In this document: one piece after another, positions 13,263 through 51,052 of the stretch
Layout: every line of letters begins with the position of its first letter
How positions within the stretch are numbered: the first letter of the stretch is position 1
Sequence record: MT446419.1
DNA from: Escherichia virus TH53
DNA length: 52,329 bases
Direction: 5' to 3' (one strand)
Made by a program: the position numbers and the translations under genes
Notes under the pieces: generated by a model
What the model was told of the DNA's origin: nothing
Databases searched by the model: none
What the model saw: the letters and a program-made list of their open reading frames with translations, nothing else

Positions 13263-13283
13263 ACATTAGTTGGATGTGGAAAG
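13263..13283 (+). promoter_or_regulatory. motif ACATTAGTTGGATGTGGAAAG, copy 6
   Basis: Ends 74 nt upstream of the ATG at 13357. Confidence 0.55.
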
Positions 13284-13695: not shown

Positions 13696-14851
13696 GTTGC
13701 CGACGGCAAACTTGAGAGACTAAGCTAAATCGATCTGGCATGCACTGGAAGTTTTCCGGTGCTGCCTTGAACCCATTCTGAAAGGAAGAGTGGGCTTCAA
13801 TGAGCATTCTTGTGATTAGAGTTGGGAGGTAGGCCGATGCCCAATCTCGTGGCCCAGACAAGAGTGTTCATTGAAGTTATTTCAATATGGATGTACAGTG
13901 GAATGAGAAGCTTCTCCGATAAGAGGAGTGAAAGTAGCTGGAGGACATGCCCACAGAACTGACCGAGACCCATTACAGTAGTAGCGATTCACTACCGCGA
14001 AACAGTATTGAAATTGGCAACGGTTCATGCGGAAGGGCATCGGTGAAATCTACGTTCAGTACGCGTGGTGAAATGAAGGAGTAGTGTCCTGAGAATTAAC
14101 CCTGTCTGGTTGAATGCCAGAGTCCATATTGAAGTAGTTTTCTGAGTCTTACGACGGGCCTAAACTGCCTGGAGTTATTGCGACTGTTTTATTCATTTAA
14201 AATAAATGCAAATGATTCTGAAATGCGAGTTGCGGCTTAATTAAATTTAAGTCCTCTCCGTGGTCTTCCAATCCCACGTAACCAAATTTGGCGCATTGTG
14301 GCTTCGAGATGTGATTAATAAATCGGAGCAATAATTAATTTGTATTCTGCGATGCAATGCAGGCTTAAGTCCCTCAGTGCGCGTGGGGATGTGACAGAGT
14401 ACAAACTTAATTATGCAGTTGGATATTTCTAGAGGACGGACGAGCACACTGGAATGTCTTCAATTGGTTTAGTGTGAGAAGCTATGCCAATTTGAAACGT
14501 AACTCCTTGAGGAAGTGCTCCTCTGGATTTCCCTCCACACAGGAATCTCAAGCCTGTGGCAGCGACTTCGAAGCTGCACTGCGTAACCTAATTCACCCTA
14601 AAGTGAGTTGCCCTGAGCATGGAAATAAACTGCTCTAACCGATGGTATCTACAAAGGTAGATTAAATCAGGTTGCCTGTTGGTACTTGGGTTCAACACCT
14701 GCTTGCACTCGCAAAGTAGTGCCTCGTACCTGAGATGAAGTGAGTCGGGACCATCAATCCCACGTTATGTCAAAACACAGTAGGCGACTCACGGATTCTA
14801 CAAGCCTCGCAGTTCGGGAAAACCTGCGTTACCAAAACCCTCCTATTCTTT

Positions 14852-14944
14852 GGACGAGTAGCTCAGAAGGTCTGCTCCAGAGCTTAGTCAGGTAGAGCAA
14901 TCTGTTCGACAGATGTGTCGTTGGTTCGAATCCAACCTCGTCCA
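14852..14944 (+). tRNA. tRNA-like element: canonical acceptor stem and T-arm, non-canonical D/anticodon region
   Basis: Seen: acceptor GGACGAG / CTCGTCC, T-arm GTTGG-TTCGAAT-CCAAC, D-arm halves GCTCAG and GGTAGAGC separated by about 24 extra nt, hairpin TCTGT-TCG-ACAGA. I could not fold a standard anticodon arm; isotype undetermined. Confidence 0.5.
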
Positions 14945-15122
14945 CCCACTTTCAACAATAACATGGAGTCCTCATGGACATTGATGCACTAGACAATTTG
15001 GACTTCGGTGCTGCCGAAGAAGCAATTGAAGAACTCAAAAAGAAGCAGGACGAAGAAGCAATCGTTCCTGGAGAAGGCGATAACGATTGTACAAGTGGTG
15101 CATGCGCCATCTAAGGTGAATC

Positions 15123-15359
15123 ATGCAACAGCTTAAATCAATAGTTCTTGGCGTCCTGACTGCATTTGGTATTCTTATTGCAGTGTTCCTCAAAGGCAAA
15201 AGCTCAGGCAAAGCCGAGGAGCGTCAGGAAGCCACAGAGAAGCAACTAGATTCATTAAAAGAATCTATCGAGATTAAATCGCATGTTCAGAAAGAAGTGT
15301 CTAGCAGTTCTGATAGCAATGTCGATAGTGAGTTGCTCTCAAAGTGGGTTCGTAAGTGA
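15123..15359 (+). CDS. i-spanin-like protein (Rz-like)
   Basis: N-terminal TM segment IVLGVLTAFGILIAVFL followed by a charged coiled-coil region; the next gene is embedded in another frame. Confidence 0.55.
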   Translation: MQQLKSIVLGVLTAFGILIAVFLKGKSSGKAEERQEATEKQLDSLKESIEIKSHVQKEVSSSSDSNVDSELLSKWVRK

Positions 15360-15492
15360 TTATTGCTTAATTGCACAACCAATCTATTTGGATGTTGCAG
15401 AAGTGAAAATCTTATCGCGCGAAACCAAAACACAGATTTTAGTCCACAATGAAACGTGGGCACAAAAGTGTTCGAAACTTACCCGACAGTGA
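15283..15492 (+). CDS. o-spanin-like lipoprotein (Rz1-like)
   Basis: Signal peptide with lipobox IVSC (MFRKKCLAVLIAMSIVSC); starts inside the i-spanin ORF in the +1 frame and runs past its stop. Confidence 0.55.
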   Translation: MFRKKCLAVLIAMSIVSCSQSGFVSDYCLIAQPIYLDVAEVKILSRETKTQILVHNETWAQKCSKLTRQ

Positions 15493-16396
15493 GTTGAACA
15501 TGGCCTAGCTAGTTGGTGGTGTAAAAGACTGACCAAGGTGACGACAGCCAAACAAATGCTCGCCATCGCATGAACAACATTTGGCAGTCCGGTACGGGAC
15601 TTTAAATACACGTACATTATAGTCGAGGGGGTGCGCGACTTTAAATAACGAGACTCTAGCCACTTGTGGTATAGCAGGTGTAATTCCTGCAATTGCTCTG
15701 GGCATAACAATTGAAATTGCTGCCTCGTATTGAACGCGAGAAAGTTCAGGTAGTCACTTCCTAGAACAGTGGCCGGGAACAGACCTAGACAAAAGTGCTT
15801 GAGAACGTTAGCTCTGTCTTGCCAGCATTAATGGCACGTTGGCCGCGTAAAGGCCACAGCGTCTGACCAACGTATCGGTCGCCAAATTCAATGGATTCGT
15901 AGAGTTAATTAAACCTGCACGATGGGATAGGGATGTAGCATCCGAGGCCGACTGTGTAATTGTGAACTTATCGTTCGCCGAATCCGCCAATTTACCTCAA
16001 CAGTTATGCCTCTGTTCAAAAGGCTCAAGAGAGCGTCTGGCATACCGTAGCGATACGGCTTAGTTGCGCTGATTGTGTTGTGCAGAAAGAAAGTTCAGGC
16101 TTTCGTTTGGGTTACTCCTCATCCCGAAGTTAGCTGGATTCAAAATCCAGACTATGTTCCTATACACATGAAATATGCAAGTCGAGGGTTCTTAATGTTC
16201 AAACATGATGCGAGCATTAAGCGGGTTTATACTTTTCCCCGATGGTCCCCATAAACAAGGCTGATTCACTTGGGCGGTTCGAATCAAATTTAATAAGTGT
16301 CTTGGCCGCAGTGGAAACATCATTTAAGCCAATGTATTGTAATGTTCGTAATAGTCCACGTCAGGACACTTACTTAAATTTTAACCGGAGAGAAAC

Positions 16397-49081: not shown

Positions 49082-50131
49082 ATGGCTAAAGGTTACTCTT
49101 TAGATGCGCTGGTTAACGAGCACTACATGAAGTCTCGTACCAACCTGGATAATACAAACTTAGGCACTCTCACAGGAATGGGCAGTGTTGGGGTATATTA
49201 CCAATCAGCCAACGCCTATGCTACCCTCGCAAATGACTACCCTGGTGGCGCTCAGGCGGGAACTCTTGAGGTTCTTCCAACAAATGCCAGCACTGTAGGC
49301 CGTGTTACACAACGGTACACGAACTGGCAAAACCAACGCATGTGGGTGCGGGGACAAAGCAGGAATACGCCTGCTGAATTGGGTTTTGGTCCGTGGGTAG
49401 AGCTTATAAATGCAAACAACATTTATAATGCAATCTATCCGATTGGTATTGTATTGCAGTTTGACAACGCCACCAACCCAAACAATGCCTTCACCGGAAC
49501 TGTGTGGGAGCAAATCACTGATGGTCGTGCTGCTCGTGCTGCGACTGGCCCCACTGCGGGAACTTCTGATGGTCAGATTGGTTCAGTAGCTGGCAGTGAC
49601 TCTGTATCTATCACTGTAGACAATTTACCAAGGCACACACATGACCTGCGTGAGCATACCCACTCCATTGGTGCCCATACCCACACGATGGCCCACACTC
49701 ACACCATCAACCACGACCACGGGGCAGTGAACACCAGCACCGCTGGTTGGCACGACCACTCGCTGAGTGGCACAGCTAACGCTGCTGGTGAACACTCTCA
49801 CCCAATATCTCAGGGTGATAACGCCAACGTACCGAATGGTAGGGTTGCTTCCTCAAACTCTCGTGAGACGCACGTAGGTTGGACAAACGGTGCTGGCAAC
49901 CATACTCACAGCATTAGCGGTACAGCCAATGGTACTGGCAACCACACACACACAGTGGACTTGCCTAACTTCACAGGTACAAGTGGTGGCTCTAGTGCTG
50001 CAAACACTGGTGGGACATCCTTGACTACAGGTGAACCAAGCAACAACACCTCTAATGTTACGGGCGGTGACAAAAACCTCGATGTAAGAAACTCTTCACA
50101 CTACTATGCCTTCTGGAAACGGGTGGCTTAA
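49082..50131 (+). CDS. tail fibre / receptor-binding protein with His-rich HxH repeats
   Basis: Seen: HTHDLREHTHSIGAHTHTMAHTHTINHDHG, GEHSHP, GNHTHSISG, GNHTHTV. Confidence 0.6.
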   Translation: MAKGYSLDALVNEHYMKSRTNLDNTNLGTLTGMGSVGVYYQSANAYATLANDYPGGAQAGTLEVLPTNASTVGRVTQRYTNWQNQRMWVRGQSRNTPAELGFGPWVELINANNIYNAIYPIGIVLQFDNATNPNNAFTGTVWEQITDGRAARAATGPTAGTSDGQIGSVAGSDSVSITVDNLPRHTHDLREHTHSIGAHTHTMAHTHTINHDHGAVNTSTAGWHDHSLSGTANAAGEHSHPISQGDNANVPNGRVASSNSRETHVGWTNGAGNHTHSISGTANGTGNHTHTVDLPNFTGTSGGSSAANTGGTSLTTGEPSNNTSNVTGGDKNLDVRNSSHYYAFWKRVA

Positions 50132-50138
50132 GGAACTC

Positions 50139-50480
50139 ATGGAACGTTTATCTATTCAAATGTTTGTGGACCTCATGCACCAATATGGTGTTTGGCATGG
50201 GCTGCTGGCTGGTCTGACAGCTTTAATCCGTGGGGCATACGAAAGTGAAGGTTTAAGCAAAGCGTTGCTGGATGCAGCGCTATGCAGCTTGATTGGCTTG
50301 TTTGCCTTTCATGTTGCTGGCACGTTTGAAACTTTCACCACTAACGTCACAATGCAGTTAGTTCTGGCTATCGTGATTGGTGTCATTGGTGCAAACCTCA
50401 TTATCACAACTGTCAGGGAAAGTTTCTCTGGCGCAATCAAACAACTTAACCCTTTGACGTGGTTCAAGAAGGCACGATGA
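50139..50480 (+). CDS. holin (putative)
   Basis: Three predicted TM segments; directly upstream of the endolysin. ATG 50139 chosen over track start 50106. Confidence 0.5.
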   Translation: MERLSIQMFVDLMHQYGVWHGLLAGLTALIRGAYESEGLSKALLDAALCSLIGLFAFHVAGTFETFTTNVTMQLVLAIVIGVIGANLIITTVRESFSGAIKQLNPLTWFKKAR

Positions 50481-50497
50481 AATGATAAGGAACTCGA

Positions 50498-51052
50498 ATG
50501 CTATCATTCAAAGTCCTTGCACTTCTAACAGCTTTAGTTCACATCAACGCCCCAGCTTCGGTTGGGGCAGTGAATTCTGCTATTACAGATTTTGCAAGTC
50601 ATTCTTATTTAAATGGAAGTCTGAAACTATCTTCTTCACAACGCAAAGAGCTAGAATGCTACGCTAAAGTTATCTGGTATGAAGCTCGCGGAGAAGACAA
50701 ACATGGAAAGATTCTGGTAGCTAATGTCGTCCGCAATAGAACAGAGTTCGGGAAGCCATTCGCTAACACCGTTTGTGATGTTGTCTATCAACGCAATCAA
50801 TTTGCATGGACACGAGAAGCAAAGAAGAAGAATGCTCAATGGAAGCATGTAGCAAAGATTAATTATGCCACAGAACAACAACAAGTTCTGGACACCATTA
50901 ATGTTGCAATCTCTTTTGTATTATTTAATCAACCCTCTGTCACCAAAGCAACCCACTTTTGTACAGCATCGGAGAAGTGCAACTTCAAGAATGTAAAAGG
51001 TTTGGGACGTTATGGTGGCCATAAATTCTATGAGTATCTAGGAAATCTGTAA
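50498..51052 (+). CDS. SleB/CwlJ-family cell wall hydrolase with N-terminal signal sequence (endolysin)
   Basis: Seen: [29 protein letters not shown]...[15 protein letters not shown]; hydrophobic N-terminus [20 protein letters not shown]. Confidence 0.75.

Follow-up and report, generated by a model that had tools for sequence, protein, structure and literature searches.

Two overlapping genes at 15123–15492 of Escherichia virus TH53 encode, with a probability that we would put at about 0.9, a compact two-component spanin of overlapped architecture. They are located on the + strand of a stretch of 52,329 nt (the window), which is essentially the whole genome of this Carltongylesvirus (Chaseviridae, phiEcoM-GJ1-like). 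The i-spanin gene (15123..15359) is an ORF of 78 aa, and the o-spanin gene (15283..15492) an ORF of 69 aa in the +1 frame relative to it. Topology, homology and gene context are the basis of the functional call. A two-component spanin pair had been proposed in the original prediction, and the PHROG spanin matches, the selection specific to each frame, the invariant lipobox Cys and the homologues in the mEp390 lysis cassette all support it. The pair was already known and catalogued for this phage group, making the finding an ordinary one, and little is at stake in it: it confirms that the window, which contains holin, endolysin and spanin genes, has the complete lysis set, and it corrects the architecture of the pair to overlapped.

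By its predicted topology the i-spanin is a type II protein of the inner membrane, and its short periplasmic domain would be helical or a coiled coil. Its strongest hydrophobic stretch (best 19-aa window, mean Kyte-Doolittle 2.35) comprises residues 7–25, the predicted N-terminal transmembrane helix IVLGVLTAFGILIAVFLKG (15141..15197, +), which shows substitutions among relatives with hydrophobicity retained in all of them. It is followed by a charged tail of ca. 53 aa without Cys, in agreement with the layout described for i-spanins, small proteins with one N-terminal TMD (N-in/C-out) and a helical or coiled-coil domain in the periplasm (Summer 2007; Kongari 2018). The transmembrane plus coiled-coil protein of the original prediction is this 78-aa product; a coiled coil was reported at residues 26–58 of the identical phiEcoM-GJ1 protein (Kongari et al., 2018, BMC Bioinformatics 19:326). 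A Shine-Dalgarno-like AAGGTGA, read from the sequence, is found at 15113..15119 (+), 3 nt before the ATG. The protein matches phrog_1026 "Rz-like spanin" at 3.6e-20 (residues 1–78 on profile positions 4–84 of 85). With Pfam we obtained only sub-threshold, unrelated matches and none to the lambda Rz family, and the tblastn matches of the i-spanin were confined to its own genus; its link to other spanins comes via the PHROG profile and direct pairwise comparison.

The o-spanin starts with MFRKKCLAVLIAMSIVSC, where a positively charged n-region is followed by a hydrophobic core and then by a lipobox (IVS-C, the last residue being Cys18), with Ser at +2. According to a PROSITE-like lipobox rule, the lipoprotein signal peptide MFRKKCLAVLIAMSIVS directly precedes this Cys (15283..15336, +, including the Cys18 codon at 15334–15336), leaving a mature part of 52 residues, and this rule-based match is the lipobox lipoprotein gene that had been expected in the +1 frame. 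Since Ser at +2 means that there is no Lol-avoidance Asp, sorting to the outer membrane is predicted. All 17 close relatives have Cys18 unchanged, as do 4HA13, PM1, mEp390 and two IMG/VR contigs. Two periplasmic Cys are likewise invariant in close and distant homologues, one within the motif (D/N)YC(L/D)IA.PI (Cys28, codon at 15364..15366, +) and the other close to the C-terminus (Cys63, codon at 15469..15471, +), so that Cys for a homotypic disulfide are available in the o-spanin (C28 and C63) and none in the i-spanin. The match to phrog_1275 "Rz-like spanin" has an E-value of 9.8e-18 (residues 1–67 on profile positions 4–73 of 81), and tblastn recovered 78 phage records, several of which carry the labels Rz1-like, o-spanin or Rz-like spanin. 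In Pfam there was no match at all, the lambda Rz1 family included. Hence the designation "Rz/Rz1-type" used in the prediction holds for the function of the pair and not for its sequence, neither protein having matched a Pfam family.

The two ORFs have 77 nt in common and the o-spanin ORF runs 133 nt beyond the i-spanin stop codon; the pair is thus overlapped, whereas the original prediction had it as embedded. Overlapping genes, the second one in the +1 frame, are one of the adjacent arrangements (embedded, overlapped or separated) known for two-component spanins. Among close relatives, the proportion of variable sites is 7.8% in the overlap, 20% in the part coding only for the i-spanin and 15.7% in the part coding only for the o-spanin. 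Within the latter, variable sites are distributed 6/1/11 over codon positions 1/2/3. Judging by these substitution patterns, both genes are under purifying selection, each in its own frame, with an almost invariant dual-coding overlap. A loose lipobox pattern turns up about once in a shuffled genome, and for this reason the significance of the pair comes from homology and conservation rather than from the motif. No other credible lipoprotein ORF was detected in the rest of the window, where loose lipobox matches fall off-frame or antisense within large genes. A second or unimolecular spanin beside the endolysin was also considered and discarded, given that nrdB directly adjoins the endolysin and that the remaining ORFs with a lipobox-like pattern, being off-frame or antisense, are artefacts.

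The other lysis genes are found at the right end of the window, namely the holin (50106..50480, +; phrog_126 at 1.1e-17; Pfam Phage_holin_3_1, 33 bits vs a cutoff of 23.8) and the endolysin (50498..51052, +; phrog_938 at 3.1e-20; Pfam Hydrolase_2, 58.5 bits vs a cutoff of 27). The spanin pair is 34.6 kb away from them; on a closed map, the way around the ends would be 16.4 kb. Both values are close to the predicted 35 and ca. 17 kb. The spanin genes are therefore not contiguous with holin and endolysin as in a canonical holin-endolysin-spanin cluster. Spanins are not defined by being next to these genes, and scattered lysis genes have a well-known precedent in T4. Synteny in relatives, proposed as a check in the prediction, is conserved: the pair occupies the same genomic slot in the four Chaseviridae genomes inspected, belonging to four genera, and the right end of Mangalitsa has the order tail fibre, holin, endolysin, nrdB, as in TH53. 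Judged by these four genomes, such a distance of the spanins from holin and endolysin is usual in the family, and, with the T4 precedent, the placement is not the anomaly that it was first taken for.

The spanin genes are located in the early/middle part of the genome, where transcription is one-directional. The nearest upstream phage-type promoter, ATTAGTTGGATGTGGA (13265..13280, +), lies 1.86 kb before them and may drive their transcription. The first 13.3 kb contain seven such sites, all of + orientation, of which this is the last; the consensus, derived from promoters annotated in phiEcoM-GJ1, gave eight matches vs 0.3 expected. The original description of a pair standing alone in an ORF-poor region is correct as to its separation from the lysis genes, but not as to its surroundings, because a conserved 46-aa ORF (14974..15114) ends 8 nt before the i-spanin gene and the flanks contain conserved RNA-like elements and are not empty DNA.

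From the established biology of spanins, as known for lambda Rz/Rz1 (Summer 2007; Berry 2012; Rajaure 2015; Kongari 2018), a mechanism can be proposed for TH53. The i-spanin would be anchored in the inner membrane, and the o-spanin, once lipidated, would be carried by the Lol system to the outer membrane and reside in its inner leaflet. Across the periplasm the C-terminal regions of the two presumably bind each other; the conserved motifs are VD.EL..W.R in the i-spanin and QILVHN.TW in the o-spanin. The complex would be kept inactive within the peptidoglycan mesh until the holin (50106–50480) frees the endolysin (50498–51052) and the wall is degraded, whereupon the released complexes would collapse, bringing about fusion of the two membranes and the end of lysis. 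As only the o-spanin has periplasmic Cys, two in number, covalent homodimerisation is probably similar to that of T4 PseT.2 rather than to that of lambda. The spanins are probably made well before lysis, which should be harmless for a spanin and would make linkage to holin and endolysin unnecessary.

It could be argued that only the 78-aa gene is real and that the 69-aa ORF in the +1 frame is an untranslated by-product of composition. Many depositors left this ORF uncalled or called a truncated form, its Shine-Dalgarno is weak (GAG only), a protein-database search retrieved just two near-identical entries, and a lipobox occurs by chance about as often as stated above. The scarcity of database entries is itself explained by the fact that an overlapped gene is rarely called. 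What makes this possibility scarcely credible is that the 133 nt outside the i-spanin gene show third-position bias in the o-spanin frame, 10 of the 14 variable codons having synonymous changes only and 4 changing the amino acid, while conservation ends abruptly just after the o-spanin stop codon. Besides, the PHROG match is significant, and other genera as well as lambdoid phages retain the ORF, its lipobox Cys and the two additional Cys at a protein identity of 35–50%.

The location of the genes could also suggest a module for envelope modification or superinfection exclusion blocking receptor or DNA entry (cf. T5 Llp, Cor, T4 Imm/Sp), that is, an outer-membrane lipoprotein made early together with a small inner-membrane protein and not a lysis device. 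Consistent with it, the pair is placed in the one-directional early/middle region at a great distance from the other lysis genes, RNA genes adjoin it, and Mangalitsa has a T4-Imm-like "immunity to superinfection" gene ca. 500 bp upstream of its spanin pair. However, homologues of both partners end the holin-endolysin cassette of mEp390, overlapping i/o genes whose C-terminal motifs are conserved together are the signature of spanins, and without the pair TH53, a phage of Gram-negative hosts, would have no candidate for outer-membrane disruption, so we regard exclusion as quite unlikely. A real spanin might still be redundant or vestigial, with the endolysin itself or, e.g., a disruptin-like peptide doing most of the outer-membrane disruption. 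In favour of this, the genes are separated from holin and endolysin in position and probably also in timing, their periplasmic domains are very short, and the o-spanin tail past Cys63 (the C-terminal 4–6 residues) has been replaced through a frameshift or the insertion of an HNH gene in several relatives, so that it is dispensable or variable there. A redundant or vestigial role is nevertheless very improbable given the strong purifying selection on both genes in 17 of 17 close relatives, in which variation is confined to those last residues, the conservation of the pair in four genera, and the lack of any alternative candidate beside the endolysin, where nrdB follows directly. The reading as a functional overlapped spanin pair is the one that we retain.

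A separate observation concerns the ORF-poor DNA just upstream of the spanins, which contains a conserved, unannotated, pseudoknotted RNA at about 14134–14340 (+ strand). Its resume site and tag resemble those of tmRNA (AUAAAU-GCA AAU GAU ... GCU UAA) and would give the peptide ANDSEMRVAA of 10 codons, with the order of elements seen in tmRNAs: resume context, short tag ORF with a hydrophobic end (..AA/..VA), stop codon in a hairpin and then pseudoknots. The tag has 10 codons in all six lineages derived from blastn (6/6), and the two pseudoknots show 99.5–100% canonical pairs with compensatory changes over 49 distinct sequences. There are sub-threshold Rfam matches to tmRNA_permuted, alpha and beta, and the SmpB-side (G/A)AUAGUUUUCG motif is retained. 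At least five unrelated lineages of virulent phages that infect Enterobacterales have the element, which is unannotated in them. RNAalifold paired the resume codon with GCAUU, but this pairing was rejected because that segment covaries instead with a GAUG/GGUG/GCUG strand, forming the second pseudoknot.

No tRNA-like domain, defined by an acceptor stem with G3-U70, a T-arm and a 3' NCCA, was detected by ARAGORN in the whole window, even at 80% thresholds, and the pseudo-calls at relaxed thresholds were rejected as inconsistent and borrowing neighbouring tRNAs. Neither a GGG acceptor strand nor a T-arm followed by 7 nt and NCCA was found within −520..+450 nt in this RNA group, whereas both are present in the related permuted phage tmRNAs that are ARAGORN-positive. 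In place of the acceptor domain, a local-complementarity search found a plain closing helix, for which a partner-shuffle control does not discriminate, many sequences having the same helix; an anchored column-by-column search found no closing helix. ARAGORN, together with Rfam at gathering thresholds, returned nothing over the whole window, so the ORF-poor region is no ordinary tRNA cluster. An ssrA fragment or attP remnant was discarded as blastn against all complete E. coli genomes gave not a single match, and literature on tmRNA-like phage RNA and on six of the tag peptides yielded nothing relevant.

We would tentatively suggest, with rather less than even confidence, that the ORF-poor DNA is an RNA-gene island whose main element represents an undescribed class of phage RNA, a derivative of the two-piece phage tmRNA of ca. 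200 nt. Such a derivative would keep the SmpB-side motif, the resume site, a selected 10-codon tag of the degradation type, the stop-codon hairpin and two pseudoknots, while a simple closing helix seems to have taken over the place of the aminoacylatable tRNA-like domain. It could act as an unconventional trans-translation template, or as an inhibitor or decoy of the host tmRNA-SmpB. If the island reading is true, the spanin genes are one protein-coding cassette lodged in it. If confirmed, a tmRNA-like RNA that is widespread and in which no acceptor domain can be detected would bear on how virulent phages deal with ribosome rescue, and it may outweigh the spanin result.

The spanins of phiEcoM-GJ1 are listed as "ovl" in a supplement (14724-14961 / 14884-15094, overlap 77), with an OIS of 78 aa, which carries the coiled coil mentioned above, and an OOS of 69 aa (Kongari et al., 2018, BMC Bioinformatics 19:326). 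The two phages are separate isolates, yet there is no difference of substance between their spanins: the i-spanin, GJ1 gp31 labelled "Rz-like spanin", is 100% identical and the o-spanin 98.6%, lengths, 77-nt overlap and +1 frame are equal, and both pairs occupy a common slot upstream of thyX and primase/helicase. DNA identity to GJ1 is ca. 96% in the spanin region; over 27–52 kb the nearest relative is ST32 (95.5%). The Mangalitsa i-spanin has 91% identity to that of TH53, with offset coordinates. In RefSeq/GenBank, labels such as Rz-like spanin, i-spanin/o-spanin or Rz1-like are found in GJ1, Mangalitsa, 4HA13, PM1, PYps23T and 2KOFFS, the RefSeq entry of GJ1 having the i-spanin annotated and the o-spanin not. 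Many deposited relatives have the i-spanin mislabelled (as "endolysin" or "L-alanyl-D-glutamate peptidase") and the o-spanin either left out or given in a shortened form that starts at Met13 or later. With ca. 53 and 52 periplasmic residues, Cys in the o-spanin only and genetic uncoupling from the rest of the lysis genes, the family illustrates clearly what a minimal spanin looks like, which is useful for engineering or annotating therapeutic phages of the Chaseviridae.

Outside the Chaseviridae, both partners are homologous to the last two genes of the lysis cassette in the lambdoid phage mEp390 (holin-holin-endolysin-gp51-gp52). The mEp390 pair is also overlapped and small (91 and ca. 75 aa); gp51 has 30% identity to the TH53 i-spanin (E 8e-8), with the C-terminal VD.EL..W.R common to both, and the o-spanins, ca. 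35% identical, have all three Cys in common, that of the lipobox and the two periplasmic ones. In mEp390, however, the pair comes directly after the holins and endolysin, while in TH53 it is 34.6 kb off, in the early/middle region. In HK639 and Pseudomonas phage AF, the o-spanin match falls on genes labelled "Rz-like spanin" or "Rz1-like", by annotation only. Lambda Rz/Rz1 consists of a type II inner-membrane protein and an outer-membrane lipoprotein from the +1 frame, bridges the periplasm and acts once the peptidoglycan is degraded. The predicted topology of the TH53 pair is alike and its mechanism presumably so, although there is no detectable sequence homology (no Pfam match), and the lambda pair is embedded whereas that of TH53 is overlapped and not adjacent to the equivalents of S and R. 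The TH53 i-spanin, without periplasmic Cys, has 78 aa vs 153 in lambda Rz, and its periplasmic domain ca. 53 aa vs roughly 130; being so short, it would need an extended o-spanin to span the periplasm. The o-spanin, in turn, has two periplasmic Cys vs one in lambda Rz1. In T4, PseT.3/PseT.2 are larger proteins (117 and 83 aa) of "separated" architecture, in contrast to the overlapped pair of TH53.

The two spanin genes overlap on the forward strand. The i-spanin gene (15123..15359), for the inner-membrane partner, is a 78-aa ORF with the product MQQLKSIVLGVLTAFGILIAVFLKGKSSGKAEERQEATEKQLDSLKESIEIKSHVQKEVSSSSDSNVDSELLSKWVRK, a good Shine-Dalgarno sequence (AAGGTGA) 3 nt before its start, and its most hydrophobic 19-residue window at residues 7–25 (Kyte-Doolittle 2.35). 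The o-spanin gene (15283..15492), for the lipoprotein partner, is a 69-aa ORF in the +1 frame with the product MFRKKCLAVLIAMSIVSCSQSGFVSDYCLIAQPIYLDVAEVKILSRETKTQILVHNETWAQKCSKLTRQ, in which Cys18 fits a PROSITE-style lipobox rule and the +2 residue is Ser. The second gene had been described as embedded in the first, which is wrong: the ORFs have 77 nt in common (15283-15359) and the o-spanin ORF extends 133 nt past the i-spanin stop, an "overlapped" pair in the terminology of the field. Some relatives' records annotate the o-spanin start at Met13; a product starting there would begin MSIVSC and lack a signal peptide, so the ATG at 15283 is the better choice. The loose lipobox pattern turns up about once in each shuffled genome and is thus not significant alone (the window has three further matches, all off-frame or antisense within large genes), so the case rests on conservation, homology, and context. 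Ending 8 nt before the i-spanin start there is a conserved acidic ORF of 46 aa (MDIDALDNLDFGAAEEAIEELKKKQDEEAIVPGEGDNDCTSGACAI, 14974-15114, forward strand), which stands before the spanins wherever the upstream annotation of a genus member was inspected, matched nothing in PHROG or Pfam, and may be co-expressed with them.

Across 16 relatives aligned at the spanin locus (90–99% DNA identity), variable columns make up 20% of the i-only part, 15.7% of the o-only part, and 7.8% of the 77-nt overlap, the low last value being as expected if both frames are under constraint. A non-translated ORF rather than a real gene is very improbable at a locus where the variable sites of the o-only part fall 6/1/11 on codon positions 1/2/3 of the o frame, where 10 variable codons are purely synonymous and 4 amino-acid-changing, and where conservation drops sharply just 3' of the o-spanin stop, relatives there diverging or carrying an HNH endonuclease gene. 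Cys18, Cys28, and Cys63 of the o-spanin are invariant in the alignment, and variation in relatives is limited to the last 4–6 residues after Cys63, through a frameshift in three and truncation by HNH insertion in two. Altered tails occur in 2KOFFS (L015) and DE15 (L018), from position 758, and in L021, L017, and L011. With the HNH gene at the 3' end, the last residues become ..KCSKR or ..KCSKQ; a 1-nt deletion in other relatives makes the tail ..KCSNLPDSE. As the protein is intact up to Cys63 in these variants, its extreme C-terminus appears dispensable. Even with the altered tails taken into account, a vestigial spanin has very little to commend it beside this pattern of conservation.

Both proteins match Rz-like spanin families over nearly their full lengths, the i-spanin phrog_1026 (3.6e-20) and the o-spanin phrog_1275 (9.8e-18). 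In tblastn the o-spanin found 78 phage records; matches outside the genus (30–50% identity), often labelled Rz-like, Rz1-like, or o-spanin, include the Chaseviridae phages Faunus, 4HA13, PM1, PP101, and phiA050 and, outside that family, the lambdoid coliphages mEp390 and HK639, Pseudomonas phage AF, and Shewanella phages. All inspected o-spanin homologues retain the signal peptide and lipobox Cys, the motifs (D/N)YC.IA.PI and Q.L.HN..W, and a second Cys, and the i-spanins of 4HA13 and PM1 share the C-terminal motif VD.EL..W.R with that of the window. In mEp390 the gp51/gp52 pair comes straight after holin, holin, and endolysin, and gp51 is homologous to the i-spanin of the window (30% identity, E 8e-8). 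The PHROG spanin families, the selection in both frames, and these cassette homologues bear out in substance the original prediction of a two-component spanin; that the pair is instead an exclusion module seems hardly credible beside the cassette homologues.

This spanin pair has been catalogued before and is usual for its phage family. Kongari et al. (2018) place phiEcoM-GJ1 (GJ1) among the overlapped two-component spanins, its i-spanin as a singleton family and its o-spanin grouped with PM1, and their supplementary tables give it as "ovl", 14724-14961/14884-15094, overlap 77, +1 frame, with an OIS of 78 aa (one coiled coil, 26–58) and an OOS of 69 aa (PMC6139136). The GJ1 i-spanin and o-spanin are 100 and 98.6% identical to those of the window. 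RefSeq or the depositors annotated the pair in Mangalitsa, 4HA13, PM1, 2KOFFS, and PYps23T, and several records call the i-spanin "endolysin" or "L-alanyl-D-glutamate peptidase" (e.g., PO103-1, PYps4T/16T/23T, Pel53) or leave the o-spanin out. Phage Pel53 has Staphylococcus hyicus as its recorded host, yet a typical Carltongylesvirus-like genome with Gram-negative spanins; these labels and this host record look like annotation or host-assignment errors.

The large ORFs tiling the window are all on the forward strand, and their order is that of the published genomes of the phiEcoM-GJ1-like group, from which we infer one essentially complete genome of a virulent myophage of this kind; direct terminal repeats of ~3.1–3.2 kb are published for the group (PMC6753284, PMC9699118). 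A 3.4-kb query spanning the spanin locus matched 50 phage records, best of all Escherichia phages EcoM1 (96.9%) and phiEcoM-GJ1 (96.0%) of the genus Carltongylesvirus (Chaseviridae), and phage ST32 has 95.5% identity to the late half (27–52 kb) over 96% of its length.

The holin (50106..50480) and endolysin (50498..51052), identified by PHROG and Pfam, are indeed remote, 34,614 bp downstream of the pair or 16,399 bp with the ends joined. This location had been taken as an oddity of the genome, which synteny contradicts, the same separation being found in the four inspected Chaseviridae genomes, which represent four genera. GJ1, Mangalitsa, 4HA13 (Sabourvirus), and PM1 (Suwonvirus) have the spanins in the same slot, with small ORFs and RNA genes upstream; on the downstream side come a small conserved ORF, thyX, and primase/helicase, in that order. 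In Mangalitsa the right end likewise houses holin and endolysin, flanked by tail fibre and nrdB. The separation is therefore not peculiar to the window. In T7, too, the spanin genes are unlinked from holin and endolysin. T4 offers an explicit precedent (PMC6139136). Searching with a consensus from the promoters annotated in GJ1 gave seven forward-strand phage promoter matches (251, 2614, 3453, 7354, 11327, 12933, and 13265) and one weak reverse-strand match, with 0.3 expected. The spanins lie 1.86 kb beyond the last forward match, with no sigma-70-like promoter or terminator on that strand in between, and we infer transcription of the pair together with the middle genes, which would be tolerable because spanins are inert until the peptidoglycan is removed.

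Straight 3' of the o-spanin, ~0.9 kb (15493-16396) lacks a convincing forward-strand ORF and is mostly unannotated. It is 87–98% identical across most of the genus and partly kept in Faunus and 4HA13 (77–82%), conservation being confined to Chaseviridae; a 50-bp insert specific to the window and JL1 (15501-15550) lies at its start. Possible roles are regulation, an origin of replication, or an RNA gene. On the other side, a tRNA-like gene (14852-14944, forward strand) has the layout of tRNA-Arg(UCG) with a ~21-nt extra mini-hairpin in the D-loop. Conserved in the genus, it scores 27.9 bits with the Rfam tRNA model, against a gathering score of 29, over the D-arm-to-T-arm part only. ARAGORN called no tRNA there in the window and a 95-nt tRNA-Leu(CAG) for the counterpart in GJ1 and ST32; the GJ1 record labels it "tRNA-Arg, may contain an intron", and its insert differs in sequence, although it can also form a small hairpin.

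Further upstream, a forward-strand element (14134-14340) resembles the coding piece of a two-piece tmRNA, with weak Rfam matches in E-value mode to tmRNA_permuted and alpha_tmRNA (14091-14295). It has a (G/A)AUAGUUUUC motif, an AUAAAU-GCA resume context, a 10-codon tag ORF (14208-14240) with its stop codon inside a hairpin, a first pseudoknot hairpin (14259-14278, partner TTGG at 14288-14291), a conserved TGATTAATAA loop (14312-14321), and a second pseudoknot ending at 14329. The tag stretch, AUAAAU GCA AAU GAU UCU GAA AUG CGA GUU GCG GCU UAA, encodes ANDSEMRVAA; the E. coli SsrA tag is ANDENYALAA. In 4HA13 the stretch has 89% identity, against only ~75–76% for neighbouring coding matches. Immediately 5' of the element, ~250 bp (13878-14127) are missing from GJ1, EcoM1, and ST32 and present in Mangalitsa at ~90% identity. 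Taken together, this region varies as a mosaic among the relatives, through small indels and through HNH or imm-like genes that only some of them have.

By blastn the element occurs in 155 phage records from at least five unrelated lineages (Chaseviridae, Ackermannviridae, Ounavirinae, Schitoviridae, and Klebsiella/Salmonella siphophages), and it was not found in complete E. coli genomes. At its position the listed records mostly have no annotation, with a hypothetical protein in a few; where inspected, it lies within a tRNA cluster or ORF-poor stretch. The resume context is the same in every lineage and the tag always exactly 10 codons long (ANDDVVLMAA, ANEEVYLAVA, ANDAQFLAVA, and ANDDVILMAA), and synonymous differences keep the tag peptide. 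A pattern scan of IMG/VR gave at least 120 contigs at 10-codon spacing versus 9 at 11-codon spacing. Among the 120 matches listed, ARAGORN found permuted (two-piece) tmRNA genes in 36, with a canonical GGGnnUG acceptor strand followed by AUAGUUUCGAC, and T-arm, acceptor, and NCCA ~170–335 nt (mostly 180–220 nt) upstream of the tag; such two-piece phage tmRNAs are known (PMC9004378).

The remaining listed contigs and the window, which we call Group B, retain the (G/A)AUAGUUUUCG motif but lack an acceptor strand, a T-arm, and CCA from -520 to +450 nt; ARAGORN remained negative on the window when its thresholds were relaxed to 80%. Two H-type pseudoknots come after the tag in 49 distinct Group B sequences, and their stems have 100, 100, and 99.5% canonical pairs with compensatory changes. 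In many lineages the RNA is closed by a plain helix, with one strand just before the GAUAG motif and the other after the second pseudoknot (e.g., CAGUGCUCUU/AAGAGCAUUG, AGUGCU/AGCACU, UAUUUC/GAAAUA); that of the window, UAUUG/CAAUA, was identified by eye, not by search. The shared motifs, 10-codon tags, and covarying pseudoknots argue that Group B is a real, structured, and widely shared RNA, a homologue of the coding piece in two-piece phage tmRNAs, with no detectable tRNA-like domain. A 2025 tmRNA database lists 79 phage sequences, and our literature search found no paper naming the Group B tags. This RNA next to the spanins deserves its own follow-up.

The topology signals, conservation, family membership, and context of the pair are consistent with a model in which the i-spanin would be anchored in the inner membrane, the o-spanin would be sorted by Lol as an outer-membrane lipoprotein, the two would bind via their C-terminal regions and, after endolysin action, would fuse both membranes. 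The system is minimal, with ~53 and ~52 periplasmic residues. T4 PseT.3/PseT.2 have a similar cysteine pattern, none in the i-spanin and two conserved in the o-spanin, and in PseT.2 both cysteines must form intermolecular disulfides (PMC6139136). Neither protein of the window matched a Pfam family, those of lambda Rz/Rz1 included; the pair would act in the manner of lambda Rz/Rz1 but belongs to a different sequence family.
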